From positions 6,165 through 70,164 of the forward strand of contig JAIPJS010000017.1 in the NCBI GenBank assembly GCA_021734025.1: a stretch of 64,000 bases of DNA. The letters run 5' to 3'. Below are positions 10,455 to 34,627 of this stretch, piece by piece. The first letter of the stretch is position 1. The number at the start of each line of letters is the position of its first letter. Below the pieces are notes generated by a model. The model was not told the origin of the DNA, made no database searches, and saw only the letters and a list, made by a program, of their open reading frames with translations. The position numbers were made by a program, and so were the translations under genes. Source of the stretch: Fidelibacterota bacterium. GTDB taxonomy: Bacteria > Fidelibacterota > JAANXI01.

Positions 10455-11333
10455 GTGGATAATCACACGCTCATAATATATTTATCAGTCATCGTGCCCG
10501 CAGGCATACTGATCTTGTGGTGGCTGCGCCGGTACTTTTCCAGTCTGGAGTCACGGCGCCTTACCAGGTTAGACCGGGTTGAAGGATTCAACCCGGTAGA
10601 AACCGAGACGCCTTTACGGAATTCGGTGACCTCGGCTAGAGAAAATGCCCAGGAAAGTATGCAGGCCCGCTATACAGTCATCCGCCGAACGTTCCTGATT
10701 ACAGTCTTTATTGTCTGGGTGGTGGCGCTGCTCTTTCCGTTTCTCGGGAGCATTCCCGCAACGCTGGTTTCCGGATTGGCTGCCGCAACGGCTGTCATCA
10801 TTGGAATTGCAGCCCGTCCGTTTGTGGAAAACCTGATCTCGGGGATCGTCATTTCGCTTTCCCGACAATTGCGGACCGGAGACACCATCGTTATCGATGA
10901 CAGTTACGGCACGGTGGAGGATATCACGCCCACTCATACCATTATCAAACTCTGGGACTGGCGCCGGCACATTATCCCGAACAGCAAAATGCTCAGCAAA
11001 GATTTTATTAATTATACCATCACCGATCAGTATATCTGGGAGCACGTGGAGTTTTGGGTGTCGCCGGAAGCGGATCTTGAACAGGTGGAAACTATTGCCA
11101 GAGATGTCGCCAGAGGGAGCGAATTCTGTGCAGGATACGAAGAGCCCCGGTTCTGGACGATGGGAATGGATAAGGACAGCCTGAAGTGCTGGGTGGCCGC
11201 CTGGGCGGATTCGCCGCCGGACGCCTGGAGCTTGAAGACCGATATCAGAAAGGGGTTAACCCGTGAATTTCAGAACGTCGGAATCAAGTTCCACCAGAAT
11301 TGGCATCAGTGGAAGGCTGAACCGGACATCTGA
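10455..11333 (+). CDS. mechanosensitive ion channel family protein (MscS-like)
   Basis: N-terminal TM helices then MscS-like beta domain (GDTIVIDDSYGTVEDITPTHTIIKLWDWRRHIIPNS). Confidence 0.8.
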   Translation: MDNHTLIIYLSVIVPAGILILWWLRRYFSSLESRRLTRLDRVEGFNPVETETPLRNSVTSARENAQESMQARYTVIRRTFLITVFIVWVVALLFPFLGSIPATLVSGLAAATAVIIGIAARPFVENLISGIVISLSRQLRTGDTIVIDDSYGTVEDITPTHTIIKLWDWRRHIIPNSKMLSKDFINYTITDQYIWEHVEFWVSPEADLEQVETIARDVARGSEFCAGYEEPRFWTMGMDKDSLKCWVAAWADSPPDAWSLKTDIRKGLTREFQNVGIKFHQNWHQWKAEPDI

Positions 11334-11883
11334 ATGACGCAGGCCCGTTTCACAAAGACGGTAGACTTTTCCTGAGAAAGTTTGACTCACTACCGCGAAT
11401 CAAACAAATGCATTAGACTCCGAAAGATACAGCAATCTTTGGTAGCCGTCTAAGATAACGCGGAAGGGTATGTCGCTGTTCGTCAAGCAACTCTGGATTG
11501 TCCGGGTTCATTTTTGACAATAAAAACGCTCATAAAACGATTTTTCCTGGCTTATTCGCTCCGGAATACGATATATTAGAACTGTATGCAAGCAGTAATA
11601 ACCCAATTCTTTCCTTGTTAATTGGAGCGGAAAAATGCACAACCAGTCTCACGAGACTCCCAAATCCGATCGGGAACCCCTCTTGGCTCAGTGCGGTAAG
11701 GAAGTAGTGTGTCAGGCAGTGCGCTCTGGAATTTCGGGGCTTTACGAATGTAATTCCGACAGGGACGGTGAATGTGAGTATGCACTTTCGTTCGGATATT
11801 CGTATTACTGCCGATGCCCCTATCTTACCAGAGATTAGGCAGAAAGTTTTTAGGAGTTTAACACTCTGGTACCAGATCTAATG

Positions 11884-11976: not shown

Positions 11977-12354
11977 TTAATTTGCCATCTCGGTGACCGG
12001 TTGAATCCCGAATACATCGTTAATAGCCTGCACGAAGGTTTCCTTCGGCAGGGCGCCAGTCGCCATCTGTGGTTGTCCTTCGGTCGGTACGAAGAGTAAG
12101 GATGGAATACTCCGGATTCCAAAAACGGAAGCAAGTTCCTGTTCCTGTTCGGTATTCACCTTGTACACCTTCAGCTGCCCCTCATATTCCTCGGACAGTT
12201 CCTCAAGGACGGGAGCTACCGCCTTACACGGCGCACACCAGTCCGCCCAGAAATCTATAATTGCGGGGACGTCTCCTTCATATTCCCATTCTTCATTTTC
12301 TTCAAAGTTGAAAACCTTGGTTAAAAAATCCTGTTTTGTTAAATGTTCAGTCAT
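11977..12354 (-). CDS. trxA: thioredoxin
   Basis: 125 aa; active-site WCAPC motif in thioredoxin-fold context. Confidence 0.85.
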   Translation of the reverse strand: MTEHLTKQDFLTKVFNFEENEEWEYEGDVPAIIDFWADWCAPCKAVAPVLEELSEEYEGQLKVYKVNTEQEQELASVFGIRSIPSLLFVPTEGQPQMATGALPKETFVQAINDVFGIQPVTEMAN

Positions 12355-17610: not shown

Positions 17611-18630
17611 ATGATGAATACAACACAAAAATTTTTCATTACAGTTGGGGCAGGTATCGCGCTAATGCTGGTGATAATGACGACCCAGGCATGCGCGGAC
17701 GTCAGACAGACAGTGGATAAGCAGTTTTCGGTGGACGCTGGCGGAACGCTCATTATCGATAGCGACCGGGGCTCCATTGAGATAAAAACAGTGGAAGAAA
17801 ATGAAGTGAAGGTCTCGGTTATCTACGAAGCGGATGTAATGAGTGAGCAAAAGGCCGAATCGATTTTTGAAGATTTCGTGGTGGACTTTTCGCAAAAGGG
17901 GAATAATGTAATTATCTCAGGCAAAGTGGATAAAGATCTGTTAGGAATATTTGATGGGAATAATCGATTGCGGATAAAGTATAAGGTGACCGTTCCGGAA
18001 CGATTTAACGCCGAACTGGCCACCGCCGGAGGCAGCATTATCGTTGGTGATCTTCACGGGAAATTGCAGGCGAAGACGGCTGGCGGCAGCCTGGATTTTG
18101 GAAATATCACGGGGAAAGTAGACGGAAAAACCGCCGGCGGGAGTATTAAAATGCAAAGCGCAGGCGATGATGTGGACCTCAAAACGGCTGGGGGCAGCAT
18201 CACAGTCGGACCAGTCAATGGAGACGCTGAAGCCATAACCTCCGGAGGGTCGGTTCGGATTGGTGAGGTGTCGGGTACGTTGGTGGCGCATACGTCCGGT
18301 GGCAGTATTTCCATCGATGGTGTTGGCGGTTCGATCGATGCAAAAGCATCCGGTGGATCGATTCGGGCTTCGGTGACGGAACAGCCTAAAGACGATTGCC
18401 AGCTGACAACGTCCGGAGGTAGCATTTCGGTCAGTCTGCCGGAAAATATCGGTCTGAATATTAAGGCCAGGACCTACGGTGGAAAAGTCAGTACCGACCT
18501 GCCTATTACAGTGCGCGGTGAAATCTCCAAGTCCCATATTGAGGGCACTCTGAACGGTGGTGGGCCTGCGATGATACTAGAAACCTCAGGCGGGAATATC
18601 TCAATTACAAAGAGCAAAGAACTGCTCTGA
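17611..18630 (+). CDS. DUF4097-like secreted beta-strand repeat protein (putative adhesin fold)
   Basis: Signal peptide; many tandem repeats of the type TAGGSI.. / TSGGSI.. roughly every 19-20 residues. Confidence 0.75.
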   Translation: MMNTTQKFFITVGAGIALMLVIMTTQACADVRQTVDKQFSVDAGGTLIIDSDRGSIEIKTVEENEVKVSVIYEADVMSEQKAESIFEDFVVDFSQKGNNVIISGKVDKDLLGIFDGNNRLRIKYKVTVPERFNAELATAGGSIIVGDLHGKLQAKTAGGSLDFGNITGKVDGKTAGGSIKMQSAGDDVDLKTAGGSITVGPVNGDAEAITSGGSVRIGEVSGTLVAHTSGGSISIDGVGGSIDAKASGGSIRASVTEQPKDDCQLTTSGGSISVSLPENIGLNIKARTYGGKVSTDLPITVRGEISKSHIEGTLNGGGPAMILETSGGNISITKSKELL

Positions 18631-19543: not shown

Positions 19544-20206
19544 GTGGCAGGATCAAAAAAAATAGGACGACGCAAGCAACCGGACGAACGGAAAAAGGAA
19601 ATTATCGATGCGGCAAGAGATCTGTTCGCATCCCAGGGATACGACAACACTACCATGCAGCAGGTCGTGGAGAAGGCGGGCACGTCCATCGGGAATTGCT
19701 ACTTTTACTTTTCCAATAAAAAGGAATTGTACCAGGGAGTCGTAGAGTCCGTTAACGAAGAGATCTCCGGAGTTGTCGACACTGCAATTCGAGAAATGAA
19801 TTCACCGTATGAGAAACTCGCTGCTGCCGTGTACTACGGGGCGAGGACCGTGCTGGAACTTTCGGAATCGGCCGGTGCCATCCTTACTGGAACGGATCAC
19901 CCGGAGATTCGCCGAAATATTCTGAACCATTACACCCGTCGAATCTATCGGTTCCTCAAACGGAATCCTGTTATCACCGGAGACATAAATCTGGAGTTGG
20001 CCTCAGCCGCATGGCAGGGTGCGATATTCAACTTGATTGAACGACAGACGGCCGGGCAGTTCGACGGCGATGCGCAAACGGTCGCCCGATTCCTGGTGCG
20101 GTGGAACCTCCGCGCCCTCAACGCCCCGGATGCCGAAATCAACAGCGCGCTGGAGACGGTTGAGAGGCATTACCGGGAGGAATACGGGAGCGGGGATGAG
20201 GTATAG
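19544..20206 (+). CDS. TetR/AcrR family transcriptional regulator
   Basis: N-terminal TetR HTH (..KEIIDAARDLFASQGYDNTTMQQVVEKAGTSIGNCYFYFSNKKELY..); GTG start. Confidence 0.9.
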   Translation: MAGSKKIGRRKQPDERKKEIIDAARDLFASQGYDNTTMQQVVEKAGTSIGNCYFYFSNKKELYQGVVESVNEEISGVVDTAIREMNSPYEKLAAAVYYGARTVLELSESAGAILTGTDHPEIRRNILNHYTRRIYRFLKRNPVITGDINLELASAAWQGAIFNLIERQTAGQFDGDAQTVARFLVRWNLRALNAPDAEINSALETVERHYREEYGSGDEV

Positions 20207-21008: not shown

Positions 21009-21635
21009 ATGACATAAGCCGGTGGGAATCTTGAAACGTGCAAAATAAAAAGCGTCGACTTGAATTTTTTTCCACTTTTAACGTCAAGGTTTTGATGTCC
21101 AAGTGTTCCATGCAGGCCCGGACATGCGTTTCAAGATAAAAGTGGAATTAATTGATATAGTTCCAAAACTCCAACATCACTCTTGTTTTTAAAACTATTG
21201 CTATCTTTTAATTGCCCGCTTTTTCTTGATAAAAAACGGGCAGAAAAAATCAAGGAAACTCAGAACTCGCACTCCTATAAATATACAGGCTCTTTTGCAA
21301 CATTGGATATAGTAAATATTAACTCATTCAATTTCTACTGGGGTGCTCAAACAGCTGAGTTTCCGGTAAAAAAACTAGCAATAATTTGCTGTGCAATTTA
21401 TTTTTCGCTCTTTTAATGCCCGAGTATTCCATATACGCATCAAGACAAAAGGGCGGTTACCTGCCGTGTCAACGTTGAAAACACAATCAATACGTTGTTC
21501 ACCCTACATCCAGAAGAAATCTTCGTCTGTAAAGATGGTGGCTATCTATTTGGGCGAATTTTAATAATCCCGACGTCACCCCCTCGGAAAGCTCAGCTCC
21601 GGGAAAAGCCTCCGGTGAGGATATTGCCTAAAACA

Positions 21636-21674
21636 GTCATTCCGAGCGGAACGGAGTGGAGCCGAGGAATCTCG
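21636..21674 (+). repeat. mosaic intergenic repeat R1 (GTCATTCCGAGCG..GGAATCTCG), copy A
   Basis: Near-identical to 34989-35027; related copy at 31264-31312. Confidence 0.6.
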
Positions 21675-21759
21675 CAAATGAATTTCAGGGGTAAAATTGA
21701 TGCGCCCTTTCCTCATCGCAATAATATGTTCGTCGCGGCGAATTGCGAGGCTCTTCTTT

Positions 21760-21788
21760 GGTAGCCTTTGAATTTCATTCAAAGGCGG
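21760..21788 (+). repeat. palindromic repeat R5 (GGTAGCCTTTGAATTTCATTCAAAGGCGGA)
   Basis: Perfect hairpin CCTTTGAAT-TTC-ATTCAAAGG; second copy with 2 mismatches at 39517-39546. Confidence 0.55.
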
Positions 21789-21999
21789 ATTTTACCGGAT
21801 AAAGCCGGAAAATTTGGTTGGCGACTGTGAATTAGAATGACCCTTTCAGGGTCTCGACCCCTGAAAGGGTCGGTAGCAAATAAGGAAACTCAATGCCATT
21901 CAGTCTTTGCGGCCCAGGTGATCCGTTTGTTAAGAGGGAGAACTCGAGAAATCTAGTCTGAACACATCGGGAATGAAGTGAAAAACTAAAAAACAAGAA

Positions 22000-22221
22000 G
22001 TAGAGACGTAGCATTCAGGTTGTGTGAAAACGAAAAATCAAATAAAAAGTGAATGCTGGGCACCGGTTTGTTCTTCCAGTAGAGACGTTCCATGGAACGT
22101 CTCTACAATCAACAATATCAATGGGTTACTGTATATTATTTTGCAGAGAGGATTTTCCGGAATCAAGAGAAAAAAATCTCTTGACAAAAAATTCTCACAC
22201 AGCCTCCGTGGTACGTCTCTA
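22000..22221 (+). repeat. MITE-like structured element, copy A (about 220 bp with long terminal inverted repeats and internal hairpins)
   Basis: Ends TAGAGACGTAGCATTCAGGTTGTGTGAAAA / TTCTCACACAGCCTCCGTGGTACGTCTCTA are inverted repeats; internal perfect hairpin 22079-22106; homologous to 34393-34627. Confidence 0.55.
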
Positions 22222-22237
22222 GTCTACCATTAACTTT

Positions 22238-23119
22238 TCAGTCCTCCCGACACGTCTCCGCCACATCCTCAAATGTAAACAGCCGGGAGTGAATCGCCGG
22301 ATGATCGACGCCAAGCCGGTCGAAGCCATCGCCGCCAACGTACAGCCGGATATCATATTTCTGGCATTGCTCATAGAGATAGTTAATCTCAAACTGGATC
22401 ATATTGATATCCTGGATATATGTGCTGGAAACGTAGAGCCGGTCAATATTAACCTCGCTGAAGATCTTTTCGATGTTGAAGAGCGGGGTAATCTGTCCGC
22501 TGAACAGTACCCGATATCCGTGCTCCTCCAGAATATGATCCACCATCTTGATGGCAATGTCATGCAGCTCCGATGAGAAATTAAGGCAAAAAGCTGTTCC
22601 CTTTTTCTGCGGGGGAATCTTGATCGATCCCTGGAGCCGGATAATACTGTCCCGGATGGTCTGCGACGCAAAGTGCTCCCCGATGACGGATAATTGATCA
22701 TTCTCCCAGAGATGGCCGATCTCGTGCAGTGCTGGCGTGAGAACTTTGTCATAAATCCGGTGCAGCGGATGCTGTCCCAGGTAGAGGCCGTTCAGGATTT
22801 TCTGAATTTTTTCGCGGTTTTTGTCCAGGGCGAGGTCAAGTATTTGCCCAGACAAGTATTCATAGTCGCCTTTAATAATGTGGTAGCTCGTCTCCAGATC
22901 CGATTCGGTTTCGATGGGGAAAAGGTTGGCTTTCTGGATTTTTTCCTCATTGCGCTCAAGAAAGTCCGCCAGATGCTCCGGCAGGAATTTCCGGTGCCCC
23001 CCGGCTGTCCGGATGCACTCCAGCTTCCCGTCATCCGTCCACCGTTTGATGCTGGACACATGCACTCCAAGGATATTGCTCACCTCTTCGCTGGTAAAGT
23101 ATTTCATCTCACTCGACAC
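22238..23119 (-). CDS. MerR/excisionase-type HTH regulator with B12-binding-like C-terminal domain (LitR/CarH-like light-responsive regulator)
   Basis: N-terminal HTH (..EEVSNILGVHVSSIKRWTDDGKLECIRTAGGHRKF..); C-terminal Rossmann-like cobalamin-binding-type region with GEH and VGGDGF motifs; divergent from a carotenoid operon. Confidence 0.7.
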   Translation of the reverse strand: MSSEMKYFTSEEVSNILGVHVSSIKRWTDDGKLECIRTAGGHRKFLPEHLADFLERNEEKIQKANLFPIETESDLETSYHIIKGDYEYLSGQILDLALDKNREKIQKILNGLYLGQHPLHRIYDKVLTPALHEIGHLWENDQLSVIGEHFASQTIRDSIIRLQGSIKIPPQKKGTAFCLNFSSELHDIAIKMVDHILEEHGYRVLFSGQITPLFNIEKIFSEVNIDRLYVSSTYIQDINMIQFEINYLYEQCQKYDIRLYVGGDGFDRLGVDHPAIHSRLFTFEDVAETCRED

Positions 23120-23202
23120 AACATTTCTCCTAATTTAATTCTCCGTAAGATACTTTTACGCGAGACCAGAGTCAAATATTTTGAGCGTTATGAACTTTTT
23201 TC

Positions 23203-23231
23203 TTGACGTATAATGATTTTAAATGTATTAT
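23203..23231 (+). promoter_or_regulatory. sigma70-like promoter TTGACG-N17-TATTAT for the carotenoid operon
   Basis: -35 TTGACG 23203-23208, 17-nt spacer, -10 TATTAT 23226-23231; about 55 bp upstream of the 23285 start. Confidence 0.5.
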
Positions 23232-23234
23232 CTA

Positions 23235-23251
23235 AACGCTCAAAACGCTCA
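23235..23251 (+). promoter_or_regulatory. direct repeat AACGCTCA-A-AACGCTCA just downstream of the -10 (candidate operator for the adjacent regulator)
   Basis: Two AACGCTCA copies at 23235-23242 and 23244-23251; inverted copy TGAGCGTT at 23182-23189. Confidence 0.35.
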
Positions 23252-23284
23252 TAAAATTTTTGAAGGAGCGAAAACGGAGAAAGA

Positions 23285-23866
23285 ATGAGAAGACGGATAA
23301 TTAAATCGATAATGGTGGTAATGGCCGGAATAACCTGTCTTGCCGGACTGACTAAAGCACAGGATGTCCCGGAGGATTCCCTGTTGCACCGAGGCCGGAA
23401 TTTGTTCTATACAGCCGTGGAGAGTGAAGTTGCGCTGGATTCCGCTCAAGCGGCGTTTAAACAATTGCTCTCCGAATATTCTCAGGAATACGGAGGCCGT
23501 GCCCAAACCTACATCGGCGCCCTCACCGCACTCCGGGGCAAGCACGCTCTCTGGCCGCAGAAGAAATACAAATATGTCATGGAGGGAATTGACCAGATGG
23601 AGTCCGGCGTCGCTGCCAATCCGAATGATATCGAATCACTCTTTATATACGGTTCAACCTGCTATCACCTGCCGAGTTTCTTCGGCAAAAGCAAAGAGGC
23701 GCAAGAGGCATTCAGGCAGATAGTAGCTCTCCTGCCGGAGCATGCGGATCAATATGACGCGGATATGATGGAAAACGTCATTGAATTCCTGCGAGCCAAC
23801 GCCAATCTGGATTCCAGTGACATGATGACCCTCAGTACAATTGCCAAGGAACTCGGAAACGGATGA
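23285..23866 (+). CDS. hypothetical secreted protein, first gene of the carotenoid operon
   Basis: GGAG RBS; signal peptide (..MVVMAGITCLAGLTKAQD); helical, no recognisable catalytic motif; stop overlaps next start (ATGA). Confidence 0.6.
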   Translation: MRRRIIKSIMVVMAGITCLAGLTKAQDVPEDSLLHRGRNLFYTAVESEVALDSAQAAFKQLLSEYSQEYGGRAQTYIGALTALRGKHALWPQKKYKYVMEGIDQMESGVAANPNDIESLFIYGSTCYHLPSFFGKSKEAQEAFRQIVALLPEHADQYDADMMENVIEFLRANANLDSSDMMTLSTIAKELGNG

Positions 23867-24561
23867 TCTACGAATATCTCATATTTAACGCGATTGTGGC
23901 AGCCGGCCCGGTGGCGCTCAGTTTTGAGCGAACGGTGCGGTACGTGACGAAGTGGCGGGCTGCCATCATCGCTTCTGTAACAGCGGCGCTCCCGTTCCTT
24001 CTCTGGGATCTGCTGGTCGCCGGCAAGCACTGGCAGTTCAGCGAGGATCACACCCTGGCATCTCTGGGATTCCTGCTGCCGCCGGGGGAGATACTGTTTT
24101 TCCTCACCGTCCCGTTCGCCTGTCTCTTCATCTGGGAAGTACTCCGGAAAAGGGAATGGGCCTTGCTGAAAAGGACTTCCTTAATTTACCCGATATTTTA
24201 TGCAATCGGTGCGGCTGGAATACTCTTTCTCATTGTCACTTCCAGAGATTACACGGCGCTCGTGCTGATAACCATCGGTGTTGTGGCGCTGGCGGACCGA
24301 TTCTCTGGTGCACAATTGTTAACACAAAAGGTGACTTACACGTTTTTAGCCATCGTTACGGGACTCATTTTAGTGTTTAACGGATACCTCACCGCCCGGC
24401 CGGTGGTGCTGTACAATCCGGACGTCCTCTCAGGACTTAAAATTTTCACTATTCCGGTGGAGGATTTCCTCTACGGCTACGGCCTTATTTTGTTGGTAAC
24501 GGTTATATACACAAGAACAACCCACACGAACACTACACCCAATCACGGAGAAAACCAATGA
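23863..24561 (+). CDS. lycopene cyclase domain protein (fused CrtYcd-type)
   Basis: Membrane protein with two copies of the PxE(E/D) lycopene-cyclase motif (LPPGEILFFL and IPVEDFLYGYG). Confidence 0.7.
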   Translation: MIYEYLIFNAIVAAGPVALSFERTVRYVTKWRAAIIASVTAALPFLLWDLLVAGKHWQFSEDHTLASLGFLLPPGEILFFLTVPFACLFIWEVLRKREWALLKRTSLIYPIFYAIGAAGILFLIVTSRDYTALVLITIGVVALADRFSGAQLLTQKVTYTFLAIVTGLILVFNGYLTARPVVLYNPDVLSGLKIFTIPVEDFLYGYGLILLVTVIYTRTTHTNTTPNHGENQ

Positions 24562-26057
24562 AACGAGCAGTCATAATCGGAGCGGGCTTTGGCGGACTGG
24601 CAACGGCTATCCGTTTGCAGTCGCGGGGCTACCGCACTACGCTTCTGGAAAAGAATGCAAAAGTCGGGGGACACGCCTACCAGCTGAAGCGGGACGGCTA
24701 CACCTTCGACATGGGACCGTCGTTGATCACCGCACCGGATATTATCCAGGGTGTATTCAGTTCCGCCGGGAAACGGATGGAGGACTATCTGGATCTGACC
24801 AAACTGGATCCGTTCTACCGGATCTATTATCACGACGGAACTTATCTGGATTACACGGACGATTCCGACGATATGAAGCGTCAGATGGCGCAATTCAATC
24901 CCGGGGATGCAGAAAACTACGACGAATTCATCAACGAATCCCGGGAACTCTACAACGCCGTGATCACCGACGGGCTCGGTTCGACGCCGTTCCAGGACTG
25001 GGGCACCATGCTGGAATTTTTACCGCGAGCATTGAAGCTGAAGGCCCTCCTGCCGGCTCACACGTTCGTCAAACGTCATTTTAAAGATCCGCGGCACCGG
25101 TTTGCGTTTTCGTTTCATCCGTTGTTTATCGGCGGGAGTCCGTTTCGGGCTCCTTCAGTCTACTTGATGATCCCGTACCTGGAGAAAACCGGCGGCGTCT
25201 GGTTCAGCAAGGGGGGCATGTACAGCCTGGTGGAAGCGTTCGCCAAAGTATTCACCGAATCCGGCGGCACCATTCACACCAATTCGCCTGCCACAGAGAT
25301 CGTAGTGGAGGACGGAAAGGCTGTAGGAGTCCGGACGGACGATAACTTCTACCACGCTGACGTAGTGGTCTCAAACGCTGACTTTGCGCATACCTATCGC
25401 AACTTGGTAAAGCCGGAGCACCGATCGAAATGGTCGGATCGCAAGGTGGAAAAAATGGACTATTCCATGAGCGCCTTTCTCCTGTATCTGGGTGTGAAAA
25501 AGCAGTATCCCAAACTGAAGCACCACACTCTGATACTCTCGGAACGTTACAAAGAACTTGTGAAGGACATTTTTGACAGGAAGATTCTGCCGGACGATTT
25601 CTCCATGTACCTGCACGTGCCGACCCGCACCGATTCTGAGATGGCGCCGGAAGGAGCCGAAAGTATGTACGTGCTGATTCCGGTAGCCAATCTCGATAGC
25701 GGCATTGATTGGGAAGAGATGAAGCAGACGTACGCCGATAAAATCCTCCAATTCCTGGAGGAAGATTTCGGCTTGGAGGACCTGCGCACCAACATCGAGG
25801 TGCAGGAAATTTTTACTCCCAAGGATTTTCAGGAGCAACGAAATTCCCATCTCGGCAGCGCCTGGGGCGTGGAGCCGAAGCTCACCCAGACGGCGATTTT
25901 CCGCCCCCATAACCGCAGCGATGATATCGGCGGACTTTACTTTGTTGGCGCCAGCACCCACCCCGGCGCAGGCGTCCCGGGCGTCCTGCTGACGGCGGAG
26001 GCCACGGAGAATGCCATTCTGGAAGATATACGAAAAAATCAACTGAAAACCACGTGA
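24558..26057 (+). CDS. crtI: phytoene desaturase
   Basis: N-terminal FAD dinucleotide-binding motif (AVIIGAGFGGLATA..); overall amine-oxidase fold; adjacent to crtB. Confidence 0.85.
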   Translation: MKRAVIIGAGFGGLATAIRLQSRGYRTTLLEKNAKVGGHAYQLKRDGYTFDMGPSLITAPDIIQGVFSSAGKRMEDYLDLTKLDPFYRIYYHDGTYLDYTDDSDDMKRQMAQFNPGDAENYDEFINESRELYNAVITDGLGSTPFQDWGTMLEFLPRALKLKALLPAHTFVKRHFKDPRHRFAFSFHPLFIGGSPFRAPSVYLMIPYLEKTGGVWFSKGGMYSLVEAFAKVFTESGGTIHTNSPATEIVVEDGKAVGVRTDDNFYHADVVVSNADFAHTYRNLVKPEHRSKWSDRKVEKMDYSMSAFLLYLGVKKQYPKLKHHTLILSERYKELVKDIFDRKILPDDFSMYLHVPTRTDSEMAPEGAESMYVLIPVANLDSGIDWEEMKQTYADKILQFLEEDFGLEDLRTNIEVQEIFTPKDFQEQRNSHLGSAWGVEPKLTQTAIFRPHNRSDDIGGLYFVGASTHPGAGVPGVLLTAEATENAILEDIRKNQLKTT

Positions 26058-26064
26058 GGCCATC

Positions 26065-26979
26065 ATGAAAAAGTACTGGAAATCCGGGGAAAACAGGGTC
26101 GCCTTCGAGCACGCCAGAGATCTGACGGCGCATCACTCCAAGTCGTTTTATCTCTCCACCCGGCTGCTCCCGGAGGAAAAGCAGTGGGCCACGTTCGGCC
26201 TGTACGGTTTTTGTCGCTATGCCGATAATCTCATCGATAATCCCAGGGATCGGTCGGCAGACGAGCTAATCCGAGAAGTGGACTACCTGCACGAGGAACT
26301 CAGCATCGCGTATCGAACCGGCGAATCCGAGCATCCGATACTCCGCCCGTTTATCGCCGTGGCCAAGCGGTACGGGATTCCGGAGAAATATCCCAGAGAT
26401 TTGCTCCTGGGCGTCCGGATGGATCTGGAAATCGATCGCTATAAAACGTTCGACGAACTCTACCTGTTTGCCTATCGCGTTGCCGGTGTGGTGGGATTGA
26501 TGATGACTTCCGTGTTGGGCTACAAGGACGAGGCGGCATTTGAGTACGCAGAGAAATTGGGCATTGCCATGCAGCTGACCAATATCCTCCGGGACGTCCG
26601 CGAGGACGCCGAACGTGGCCGTATCTATCTGCCACAGGATGAACTGAAGCAGTTCGGCGTTTCCGGGCAAGCTATCCTCCGGGGAGAAATGTCGCCTGAA
26701 TTTCGGGAATTGATGCAGTTTCAGGTGGATCGGGCGCACCGGTATTACCGCGAGGCCAATCCCGGCATCAACATGCTGGCGACCAACGCCCAGTTTGCCA
26801 TCCATTCGGCAAGCAAAATCTATCGGGGAATTCTCCGGAAAATTGAAGCTCAGAATTACGATCCCTTCCAGGGACGGGTATTCGTCCCGCAGATCCAGAA
26901 GTTCGGCATCCTGATCCAGGAAGTGGTGCGAACCAAAGTCCTGGTGGCCCAGGAACGGCTTCTCCCGGCAGGAACCTAA
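26065..26979 (+). CDS. crtB: phytoene synthase
   Basis: Squalene/phytoene synthase family segments (..YCRYADNLIDN.., ..YAYRVAGVVGLMMT..). Confidence 0.85.
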   Translation: MKKYWKSGENRVAFEHARDLTAHHSKSFYLSTRLLPEEKQWATFGLYGFCRYADNLIDNPRDRSADELIREVDYLHEELSIAYRTGESEHPILRPFIAVAKRYGIPEKYPRDLLLGVRMDLEIDRYKTFDELYLFAYRVAGVVGLMMTSVLGYKDEAAFEYAEKLGIAMQLTNILRDVREDAERGRIYLPQDELKQFGVSGQAILRGEMSPEFRELMQFQVDRAHRYYREANPGINMLATNAQFAIHSASKIYRGILRKIEAQNYDPFQGRVFVPQIQKFGILIQEVVRTKVLVAQERLLPAGT

Positions 26980-26997
26980 GGATTTGGGAGACAAGAA

Positions 26998-27729
26998 ATG
27001 ATAAAGGCAGAGAAAACATGGTGGGCGGATCAGCTGTTCCGGAGGTACGTGTTCCGGTCGCTGCGAAAGCACTTCGCCGGGATATCTCTGGTAGGAGAAG
27101 TCCCAGTAATTGATCCGAAACTCCCGGTGATCCTGGCGCCGAATCACAGCACGTGGTGGGACGGATTTTTCGTCTATGCACTCAATGAGAAATTACTGAA
27201 CCGGGATCTCTACCTGATGATGACCGAAGAGCAGCTCTCCCGGTTTCCCTTTTTCCGGAAGGTCGGCGCCTATTCGATTAATCTGAAGTCCACCCGGGAT
27301 GCTCTCAATTCGCTACGGTACACTACCGAATTACTTGCGCGTGATGAAGTTCCAGGCCCGATGGCCTGCATCTTTCCCCAGGGAAAATTAGAGCCGTGGC
27401 ATCGGAGACCGCTGGAGTACAAGCCTGGATTGCAATGGATTATCAATCATTGTGTGGGTGCAGTCAGCCTGCTTCCGCTCGCTATATATGTGACATTCAT
27501 CGATCAGCAGTATCCGGAAGTGTTTATCCTCTTCGGGGAGACGTGTGAAGTCAGTTCCAGTTCCTTCCAGGGAGTGGACTGGCTTGCAGGTGAGGAGGAA
27601 AGCCTTTTGGACAGGCTGCTACAAACGGTGGATGCAGGTGAACGGAAGCAGGTGCTTTTTCAGGGAAGGCGGTCGGCAGACCAGCGCTGGAGCGGCATTA
27701 AACATCTCTGGAAAGGCGATATGTCATGA
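26998..27729 (+). CDS. lysophospholipid/glycerol-3-phosphate acyltransferase family protein (candidate carotenoid-glycoside acyltransferase)
   Basis: Acyltransferase motif NHSTWWD (H-x4-D); position between crtB and a glycosyltransferase. Confidence 0.65.
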   Translation: MIKAEKTWWADQLFRRYVFRSLRKHFAGISLVGEVPVIDPKLPVILAPNHSTWWDGFFVYALNEKLLNRDLYLMMTEEQLSRFPFFRKVGAYSINLKSTRDALNSLRYTTELLARDEVPGPMACIFPQGKLEPWHRRPLEYKPGLQWIINHCVGAVSLLPLAIYVTFIDQQYPEVFILFGETCEVSSSSFQGVDWLAGEEESLLDRLLQTVDAGERKQVLFQGRRSADQRWSGIKHLWKGDMS

Positions 27730-28847
27730 CCGTACTTTCAATCTTATTGCTCGTTCCACTGGGACTTTTGTTACTTGTCGCACTGTTCAATGCGGTGTTT
27801 ACACCCAGATTACAGAAGCATTTTCCTGTAAAGGATTCGCCGAAAGTCTCGGTTTTGGTGCCTGTCCGCAATGAAGAGGAAACCTTACCGCGCTGCCTAT
27901 TGACTTTGACTGAGCAGGATTATGGGGACTTCGAAATCCTGGTGCTGGACGATGGTTCCACCGACAAAACGCCGGACATAATCCGGGAATTTGCGGAGGA
28001 ACACGCCCGGGTGCACTATATCCCCGGTGAACCGCTTCCTGAAGAATGGTCGGGGAAGAACTGGGCGTGCCATCAGCTGAGTGCAGCAGCGACCGGAGAT
28101 ATTTTGCTCTTTACGGATGCCGATAACTGGTACCGGGACGATGCGATTTCCAGAACTATCGGATGGATGCAACAGTATGAACTCGGAATGCTTTCGGCGT
28201 TCCCGGAACAGAGCACTCATACCCTCGCCGAGCAGATGATCATCCCGATTATGGATCTGTTGGTTTACGCGGGATTGCCGCTCTGGCTGACATATTATAC
28301 GAAATTTCCATCTCTGGCAGCAGCAAACGGCCAGTGGATGGCCTTCTCCAGAGAAGCCTATAACGCGGTGGCGGGACATGCATCAGTCTGTCGGGAAATT
28401 GCCGAGGATACCGCACTGGCGCGCCGGGTAAAACAGGCCGGAATTCCCATGCTGACAATGGCGGGAACCGGGGTGGTTTTCGGCCGCATGTATAAATCGT
28501 TCAATGCCATCAAAGAAGGATTTACTAAAAACCTGTTCAGCCTGATGAACCGGCGAACCCGGCCGTATTTTATTCTGGTGGCCATCGTGCTTTTTGTCAC
28601 CATTACTCCGTACGTGTTGGTATTCGTCCCCGGATTCAGTATCGTTGGAACGGTCGGTGTCCTGTTACAAGGAGTTATGCGGCTTATTGTGGCGGTCAGG
28701 TTTTGGCATCCGCCGGTGATCAGCGCGGTATTGCACCCGGTGAGTATATCCATCTTTGCCTACATAGCCGTCAACTCGTTTTTTAAAACAAAGAGCAATG
28801 CGGTGGTCTGGAAGGACAGAACAATTGCGCTGTATAATCGTGGGTAA
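27726..28847 (+). CDS. family 2 glycosyltransferase (candidate carotenoid glycosyltransferase)
   Basis: GT2 segments (VSVLVPVRNEE.., LVLDDGSTDKT.., FTDADN); C-terminal TM helices; start overlaps previous stop (ATGA). Confidence 0.75.
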   Translation: MTVLSILLLVPLGLLLLVALFNAVFTPRLQKHFPVKDSPKVSVLVPVRNEEETLPRCLLTLTEQDYGDFEILVLDDGSTDKTPDIIREFAEEHARVHYIPGEPLPEEWSGKNWACHQLSAAATGDILLFTDADNWYRDDAISRTIGWMQQYELGMLSAFPEQSTHTLAEQMIIPIMDLLVYAGLPLWLTYYTKFPSLAAANGQWMAFSREAYNAVAGHASVCREIAEDTALARRVKQAGIPMLTMAGTGVVFGRMYKSFNAIKEGFTKNLFSLMNRRTRPYFILVAIVLFVTITPYVLVFVPGFSIVGTVGVLLQGVMRLIVAVRFWHPPVISAVLHPVSISIFAYIAVNSFFKTKSNAVVWKDRTIALYNRG

Positions 28848-34392: not shown

Positions 34393-34627
34393 ACGACGTA
34401 ACATGCAGGGTGTGTGAAAATACGCAAGGGAACAATTGTGAGTAATCATCACATATTCCTTCTGGTAGAGACGTTTCTTGCCTGTCCCGAGATGTCGGGG
34501 GAAACGTCGCTACATACAATAGTAACAATGGCTTATCGAAGATTTTTATCGAGTGGGATTTCACTACGCTCAGAGGAAAAAATTCCTTGACAATGCATTC
34601 TCACACTGCCTCCATGCTATGTCTCTA
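34393..34627 (+). repeat. MITE-like structured element, copy B
   Basis: Homologous to 22000-22221 with shared terminal blocks and internal hairpins; compensatory changes in one stem (AGAGA/TCTCT versus AGGAA/TTCCT). Confidence 0.55.

Follow-up and report, generated by a model that had tools for sequence, protein, structure and literature searches.

Which factor reads the short repeats that lie at the start of a carotenoid (crt) operon in this genome, and by what arrangement on the DNA? In the window, as we call the whole stretch of 64,000 nucleotides that was analysed, the operon adjoins a regulator gene divergently, the regulator lying on the minus strand and ending at 23119 and the operon running on the plus strand from 23285. 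A first-pass annotation of this DNA had placed a canonical promoter between the two, followed by repeats proposed to be the operator of a divergent, CarH-type, B12-dependent repressor, with the caveat that 8-mers of this kind are not statistically unusual. Here, we re-read the intergenic region, compare it with homologous loci and ask what kind of protein the regulator is.

Repeats and promoters between the regulator gene and the crt operon

The features on which the argument turns are as follows, in order of position.

22238..23119, minus strand: regulator gene, 293 aa, with a BldC/excisionase-type winged helix-turn-helix, a CarH-like four-helix bundle and a B12-binding Rossmann domain
23147..23175, minus strand: putative regulator promoter P_reg, with -35 box TTGACT (23175-23170), a 17-nt spacer and -10 box TATCTT (23152-23147)
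23182-23198, minus strand: candidate operator site O1, tandem TGAGCGTT-A-TGAACTTT, from the search with the tandem 17-mer
23203..23231, plus strand: putative carotenoid operon promoter P_crt, with -35 box TTGACG (23203-23208), a 17-nt spacer and -10 box TATTAT (23226-23231)
23235-23251, plus strand: candidate operator site O2, tandem AACGCTCA-A-AACGCTCA, from direct reading and as a match to the 17-mer
23285..23866, plus strand: first operon gene, 193 aa, with a hydrophobic, signal-peptide-like N terminus
23863..28847, plus strand: remaining operon, encoding a lycopene-cyclase-domain protein, CrtI, CrtB, an acyltransferase and a family-2 glycosyltransferase (Pfam)

The open reading frames of the operon abut or overlap one another, and Pfam assigns CrtI and CrtB as phytoene desaturase and phytoene synthase. 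The 193-aa protein encoded by the first gene has no match in Pfam or NCBIfam, and is 43% identical to the product of the syntenic gene in locus L093. A similar N-terminal sequence is found in the first gene after O2 at L005, L006, L014, L016, L030, L034, L043 and L060; judged from this shared sequence, these eight proteins are likely homologues of the 193-aa protein. With likely homologues first after O2 at no fewer than eight other loci, the protein would be part of the presumed light regulon and conserved within it. The regulator itself is identical to one recorded in a Candidatus Marinimicrobia metagenome-assembled genome, and most of its relatives belong to Calditrichia.

Past the 3′ end of the regulator gene, positions 21009-22237 form a 1.2-kb stretch without a long open reading frame and with a GC content of 0.41, compared with 0.50 for the window. 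The syntenic locus L091 has a DUF1614 gene at the matching position, of which 21009-22237 of the window holds no trace. Four copies of TAGAGACGT fall within 220 bp of this stretch, against 0.14 expected in the whole window; the set includes a perfect 28-bp palindrome at 22079-22106, and a fifth copy lies at 34466.

Re-reading the sequence confirmed the positions given in the first-pass annotation for TTGACG-N17-TATTAT, for the pair of AACGCTCA copies and for TGAGCGTT. Exact copies of AACGCTCA occupy 23235-23242 and 23244-23251, and the inverted copy, TGAGCGTT, occupies 23182-23189 (sequence reading of 22900-23600). The inverted copy is present as described but is not a stray single copy: on the minus strand, 23198..23182 reads AAAGTTCA-T-AACGCTCA, which differs from the tandem 17-mer by 2 mismatches at specified positions. 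Because the upstream copy is half of this second tandem, O1, the region forms a 70-bp pseudo-dyad of two tandems with a 9-bp period, set in inverted orientation. The O1 repeat nearest the crt promoter, TGAACTTT, has no CG core.

Clustering, rather than number, sets these copies apart from background. The window contains 5 occurrences of AACGCTCA, where 1.7 would be expected, and 3 of the 5 are inside 70 bp; three copies within 70 bp were seen in 0 of 3000 shuffles and two copies in 19, with a Poisson estimate of about 3e-6. The earlier caveat about 8-mers was, on these figures, too cautious. The tandem 17-mer, with up to 3 mismatches, has 2 matches in the window, against 0.14 expected from shuffles.

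Two lone copies lie elsewhere in the window. The one at 17745 is inside a coding region and was taken as chance. The other, a single exact copy at 11525 (region 11516-11540), is intergenic and lies 5 nt past a TTGACA, with no second repeat; it is flanked by an open reading frame ending at 11333 and a minus-strand open reading frame at 11977-12354, with no clear downstream gene, and could be a weak regulon site or chance.

P_crt is the best sigma-70-like match in a consensus scan of 2.5 kb, agreeing at 10 of 12 positions, and its boxes are conserved at homologous loci; the canonical promoter of the first-pass annotation therefore stands, and to it we add a second, the regulator's own promoter, which was found in the same scan and abuts O1. 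O1 lies between the two back-to-back -35 boxes, those of P_crt and P_reg, and O2 begins 3 nt past the -10 box of P_crt, such that O1 and O2 flank both core boxes of P_crt. From the positions of the boxes, the crt start site is predicted at about 23238-23240 and that of P_reg at about 23140 on the minus strand; O2 would then span about -4 to +13 relative to that start, and O1 would lie at about -41 to -57 relative to both promoters.

Recurrence of the motif and its geometry across genomes

The comparative set comprises 80 genome loci, 619 kb in all, with regulator homologues at 35-62% identity. The exact 8-mer AACGCTCA is found within 300 nt upstream of the regulator homologue at 43 of the 80 and is, in an unbiased count, the most widespread 8-mer upstream, 38-fold enriched relative to the rest of the loci. 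The tandem 17-mer, again with up to 3 mismatches, has 130 matches in the 619 kb, 92 of which fall within the upstream 300 nt that make up 4% of the sequence. Tandem sites are present upstream of the regulator in 54 of the 80 loci, from Calditrichia, KSB1 and Marinimicrobia. In the other 26 loci the upstream 300 nt are free of tandem sites, and at least two of these loci carry one farther along. The full layout of O1, promoter and O2 is present at 31 loci, the window included.

A position matrix gives the half-site as A-W-C-G-C-T-C-A, with the CG invariant. Half-sites on the same strand are offset by 9 bp in 78 pairs and by 18 bp in 11 pairs; other offsets almost never occur, and 11 bp never does. 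The repeats come in runs of 2-4 (three, for example, in L093 and L048), with an A/T-rich junction between them.

Conservation within the region was resolved by footprint alignment of the window and three syntenic loci, the regulators of which are 86%, 81% and 63% identical to that of the window. Both tandems and the four promoter hexamers are invariant or nearly so, including both boxes of P_reg, which are invariant, while the spacers between -35 and -10 boxes diverge. O1 is unchanged throughout, except for the single spacer base between its two repeats.

The same geometry is kept in a wider sample of 29 non-redundant loci. Rightward promoter boxes are kept between O1 and O2 in 26 of these, again with diverging spacer sequence, and promoter spacers measure 16-18 nt, mostly 17. 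O1 and the -35 box are separated by 5-7 nt in 17 of the 29 loci, a number that rises to 19 if the range is widened to 4-7 nt to take in the window (4 nt); another 7 loci have a separation of 16-17 nt. Between the -10 box and O2 there are 2-4 nt in 17 loci and 10-11 nt in another 6. At 21 of the 29, the regulator strand shows a TTGACA-like box exactly 6 nt past O1, then a 17-nt spacer and TATATT.

The centres of O1 and O2 are 53 bp apart in the window, and across loci their distances fall into two classes, 53-58 and 60-65 bp, with the extra 10 bp or so placed differently between O1 and O2 in different lineages. A strict dual-tandem DNA pattern, used alone to scan metagenomes, returned 6 loci, too few for spacing statistics; the regulator is adjacent in 4 of the 6, a contig end intervenes in 1 and the regulator is absent in 1. 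The distribution is bimodal, but one metagenome locus lies at 60 bp and periods of 9 and 10.5 bp are indistinguishable in these data, so that a helical phasing of the O1-O2 distance is suggestive only.

The motif extends to distant relatives of the regulator. The promoter of the homologous gene in three strains of Chloracidobacterium thermophilum reads TTGACC, 18 nt and TAGAGT, and AACGTTCA-A-AACGTTCA comes just after it; the 186-aa gene beside this regulator is not homologous to the 193-aa first gene of the window (E 0.86). A Pyrinomonadaceae locus carries TGAGCGGT-T-TGAGCGAT. Across loci, the divergent gene varies, encoding a lycopene cyclase, CrtI, a probable homologue, of 190 aa, of the window's 193-aa protein, an ECF sigma factor, a TonB-dependent receptor, GTP cyclohydrolase II or a DUF4397 protein. 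From this comparison of sequences, the motif goes with the regulator, whatever the neighbouring gene.

Tandem sites also stand ahead of TonB-dependent receptors with CarboxypepD_reg, GTP cyclohydrolase II, ECF sigma factors and DUF4397 proteins (L022, L027, L047, L048, L052, L063, L066, L069 and L071; also L018, L035 and L037; L017, L021 and L029; and L041, L050, L055 and L088). The regulon therefore appears broader than carotenoid genes. Its ECF sigma neighbours are reminiscent of the LitR-LitS pair in Streptomyces.

Several genomes have two paralogous regulators, each with its own tandem sites, either in one locus (L089, 2875-5647, in tandem) or on pairs of contigs (L004/L050, L007/L055 and L008/L049). 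The second set of paralogues has its tandem ahead of the -35 box of the regulator, with one half-site after the -10 box. The most distant regulators, about 35-37% identical to that of the window, are those of the Marinimicrobia loci L073, L076 and L078; here the upstream repeats have diverged to TGCACGTT or TGAACGTT, perhaps because recognition helix and half-site have evolved together.

The regulator and a proposed light-released operator

Pfam models place the regulator above the cut-off for HTH_17 (score 42.4, cut-off 27), MerR_1 (31.7, 21.6) and B12-binding_2 (38.1, 23), and below it for the B12-binding Rossmann domain (22.7, 32.1). In an alignment of 26 sequences, the Wx9EH motif (W138-x9-E148-H149) and E184-x-H186 are invariant or nearly so; the lower-ligand histidine is conserved in the family, and the motifs align with those of CtMerR. 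The closest PDB entry in a phmmer search is CtMerR (8JBS; E 8.6e-30 over residues 6-271). An AF2 model of the regulator (pLDDT 88.8) matches 5C8F, 5C8E and 5C8D in Foldseek over 295-306 columns, with E values of 2e-13 to 1e-11, and the CtMerR cobalamin domain with a TM score of 0.84.

The DNA-binding domain points elsewhere. Searched alone against PDB sequences, it finds CtMerR (E 4.4e-10) and then BldC (E 4e-5); TtCarH is absent from this search at E <= 1, and in full length TtCarH aligns over the cobalamin domain only. BldC residues V23, R30, W31, G44, H46 and R47 align with V19, R26, W27, G40, H42 and R43 of the regulator, all invariant in the family. Scores stay below cut-off for both the NCBIfam CarH model NF052513 (43.8 bits, cut-off 400) and the BldC model NF033787 (39.1, cut-off 77). 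These comparisons make the regulator a variant in its own right, in which a CarH-like photosensor is joined to a DNA reader of BldC type; its candidate operator is bipartite and built of 9-bp repeats. What holds of the earlier designation 'CarH-type' is thus the B12 sensor module; the BldC/excisionase-type DNA-binding domain and an operator without the 11-bp period set it apart from canonical CarH. The broader proposal, that the repeats are the operator of the divergent B12-type repressor, gains support from the comparison, as motif, 9-bp period and promoter position recur in dozens of genomes.

We consider it likely that 23182-23251 is the bipartite operator of the regulator encoded at 22238-23119, and that this protein is a CtMerR-like adenosylcobalamin photoreceptor that acts as a light-controlled repressor.

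Other explanations of the repeats account for parts of the same evidence. That a short word should have clustered by chance in AT-rich intergenic DNA has next to no probability left: an 8-mer is short, and lone copies in the window, such as that at 17745, do resemble chance, but no shuffle reproduced the cluster and the same layout is found in dozens of independent genomes, comparative data by which this explanation is already refuted. Alternatively, the operator could be real and conserved but read by another factor, either the TetR-family protein encoded at 19544-20206 or one encoded elsewhere, with the B12-type regulator merely a neighbour or a target. The TetR gene is 3 kb away and syntenic in L091, tandem sites also occur at genes that do not adjoin the regulator, and binding by the B12-type regulator is something that we infer from sequence. 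Even so, the regulator gene is the motif's only constant partner, at 54 loci from several phyla with varying neighbours, and the Chloracidobacterium homologue has the motif with no TetR among its listed neighbours. TetR dimers typically bind palindromes, whereas 9-bp direct repeats fit a BldC-type domain. We judge a reader other than the B12-type regulator to be improbable.

Lower again is the probability that the repeats are themselves promoter elements or the target of an alternative sigma factor. A leftward -35 box, TTGAGC at 23243-23238, can be read within the repeats, with TAAAAT (23221-23216) 16 nt away and 9 of 12 positions matched in the scan, and ECF sigma genes are sometimes the divergent neighbour. 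However, conservation covers the whole 8-mer, including an invariant CG outside the -35 consensus, in a strict 9-bp tandem, and the footprint alignment has no conserved -10 box at the proposed position; a much better conserved leftward promoter lies 6 nt beyond O1, in favour of which the promoter inside the repeat was rejected. Least probable among the explanations that accept the repeats as functional, by a little, is that O2 acts as RNA, in the 5′ untranslated region of the crt mRNA, through stability, translation or protein binding. O2 would indeed be largely transcribed, and in the six loci in which it follows the -10 box by 10-11 nt it would lie entirely in the leader. Against this, O1 is the same motif inverted between two -35 boxes, transcribed by neither promoter, and at many loci the motif lies upstream of -35 boxes. 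An Rfam scan of the whole window also returned no match, and the region is therefore not accounted for by a riboswitch or other known RNA.

For a bipartite operator of the B12-type regulator, the data give directly the sequence and its departure from chance, its conservation and geometry, and the domains of the protein; we infer binding by that protein, repression, and dependence on B12 and light, while bridging of O1 and O2 by one tetramer would be a further possibility. Two BldC-type winged-helix domains would read each tandem head-to-tail, with the invariant Arg26 placed on the invariant CpG. In the dark, a B12-bound tetramer, offering four DNA-binding domains for four repeats, would occupy both O1 and O2. 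Occupancy of O2 would cover the crt transcription start and switch the crt operon off, and O1, abutting both -35 boxes, would add cooperativity and probably an autoregulation that damps P_reg. On illumination, cleavage of the Co-C bond would break up the tetramer and end cooperative binding, so that both promoters would be freed and transcription could begin. Because its position does not alone block RNA polymerase, O1 could have a role in cooperativity, in autoregulation or even in activation.

More tentatively, one tetramer might clamp the two inverted pairs of 9-bp repeats and thereby wrap or bend the core promoter in a form that light can release, a possibility that we consider doubtful. 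It is hinted at by the match of four repeats to four domains, by the two classes of O1-O2 distance with about 10 bp at differing places and by BldC-type bending; O1 and O2 are five to six helical turns apart. Bridging is disfavoured because many promoters have a single tandem only, and also by our own estimate that 53 bp of straight DNA measures about 180 Å, which is near or beyond the span of a tetramer unless the DNA is strongly bent. We know of no photoreceptor for which such a promoter clamp has been described.

Relation to known systems

B12-based photoreceptors are a young field in which, to our knowledge, DNA binding is well understood for one paradigm, that of the CarH tetramer bound to 11-bp repeats in tandem. 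The CtMerR-like class is widespread, numbering hundreds of proteins across Calditrichota, Marinimicrobia, KSB1 and Acidobacteriota, and its DNA target had been left open. The loci compared here supply a candidate operator for this class, AWCGCTCA with a 9-bp period in two inverted tandems around a sigma-70-type promoter, together with a structural rationale drawn by analogy, in which BldC-type head-to-tail reading would place an arginine on the invariant CpG. They also supply a candidate regulon of carotenoid genes, an ECF sigma factor, TonB-dependent receptors, GTP cyclohydrolase II, DUF4397 proteins and a putatively secreted protein without a recognised family. If the assignment is true, it would provide optogenetics with a green-light repressor-operator pair orthogonal to CarH; if the clamp is also true, the orthogonal green-light switch would have a defined operator. 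We found neither the AWCGCTCA motif nor a DNA target of the CtMerR-like class in the literature searched, the coverage of which leaves out most subscription journals.

Two classical arrangements offer a first point of reference. MerR activators bind a palindromic operator inside an over-long spacer of 19-20 bp between the -35 and -10 boxes; here, the spacers are 16-18 nt, and the sites lie outside the spacer and consist of direct repeats. GalR, at OE and OI, is a repressor with two operators flanking a promoter. The present layout is similar in having two sites around the core promoter, with spacings in two classes about one helical turn apart, but the sites are only 53-65 bp apart, each is built of direct repeats and their bridging is putative.

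For CarH and LitR class I, the references are Thermus thermophilus CarH (PDB 5C8D/5C8E) and the CarH proteins of Bacillus megaterium and Myxococcus. The regulator resembles TtCarH in its domain order, in which a winged helix-turn-helix precedes a four-helix bundle bearing Wx9EH and then a B12-binding Rossmann domain with a histidine as lower ligand, and in its full-length fold (E about 1e-13). Like CarH, it is encoded divergently from carotenoid genes and has a direct-repeat operator, here a candidate one, overlapping a sigma-70-type promoter; by analogy, the expected logic would be repression by a dark tetramer and release by light. CarH operators consist of three or four contiguous 11-bp repeats, nnnnTnnACAn (PMC9304148), whereas the repeats described here have a 9-bp period and the sequence AWCGCTCA, and are arranged as inverted pairs, one to each side of the core promoter. 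The DNA-binding domain also has no detectable sequence similarity to that of TtCarH.

CtMerR (8JBS/8JBT) is closer, with similarity over the full length, DNA-binding domain included, although the identity is only about 28% (tblastn). Its cobalamin domain forms a tetramer with adenosylcobalamin in the dark and monomers in the light (PMC11796333). That study treated the cobalamin-binding domain alone and gave no DNA target; the word 'operator' is absent from it, and its authors proposed 'an alternative DNA-binding site' but named none (PMC11796333). CtMerR's own gene has the 9-bp tandem AACGTTCA-A-AACGTTCA after its promoter. Compared with the half-site of the window, the Chloracidobacterium repeat has T for C, and a single clear tandem lies near the promoter.

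Finally, the DNA-binding mode most like the one proposed here is that of Streptomyces BldC (6AMK/6AMA). BldC protomers each take one 9-bp direct repeat, head-to-tail, on a variable number of repeats; Arg30 contacts a pyrimidine-G step, the wing residues His46, Arg47 and Arg48 enter the AT-rich minor groove, Val23, Trp31 and Gly44 form the interface between protomers, and a dimer bends DNA by about 50 degrees (PMC5859096). BldC itself is a stand-alone protein of 68 residues without a sensor and has the consensus AATTnnnnC, unlike the 293-aa regulator with its B12 module and its AWCGCTCA repeats. The contact, wing and head-to-tail residues of BldC are nevertheless invariant in the regulator family, and the 9-bp period, the runs of 2-4 repeats, the invariant CpG and the A/T-rich junction would all fit the BldC mode.
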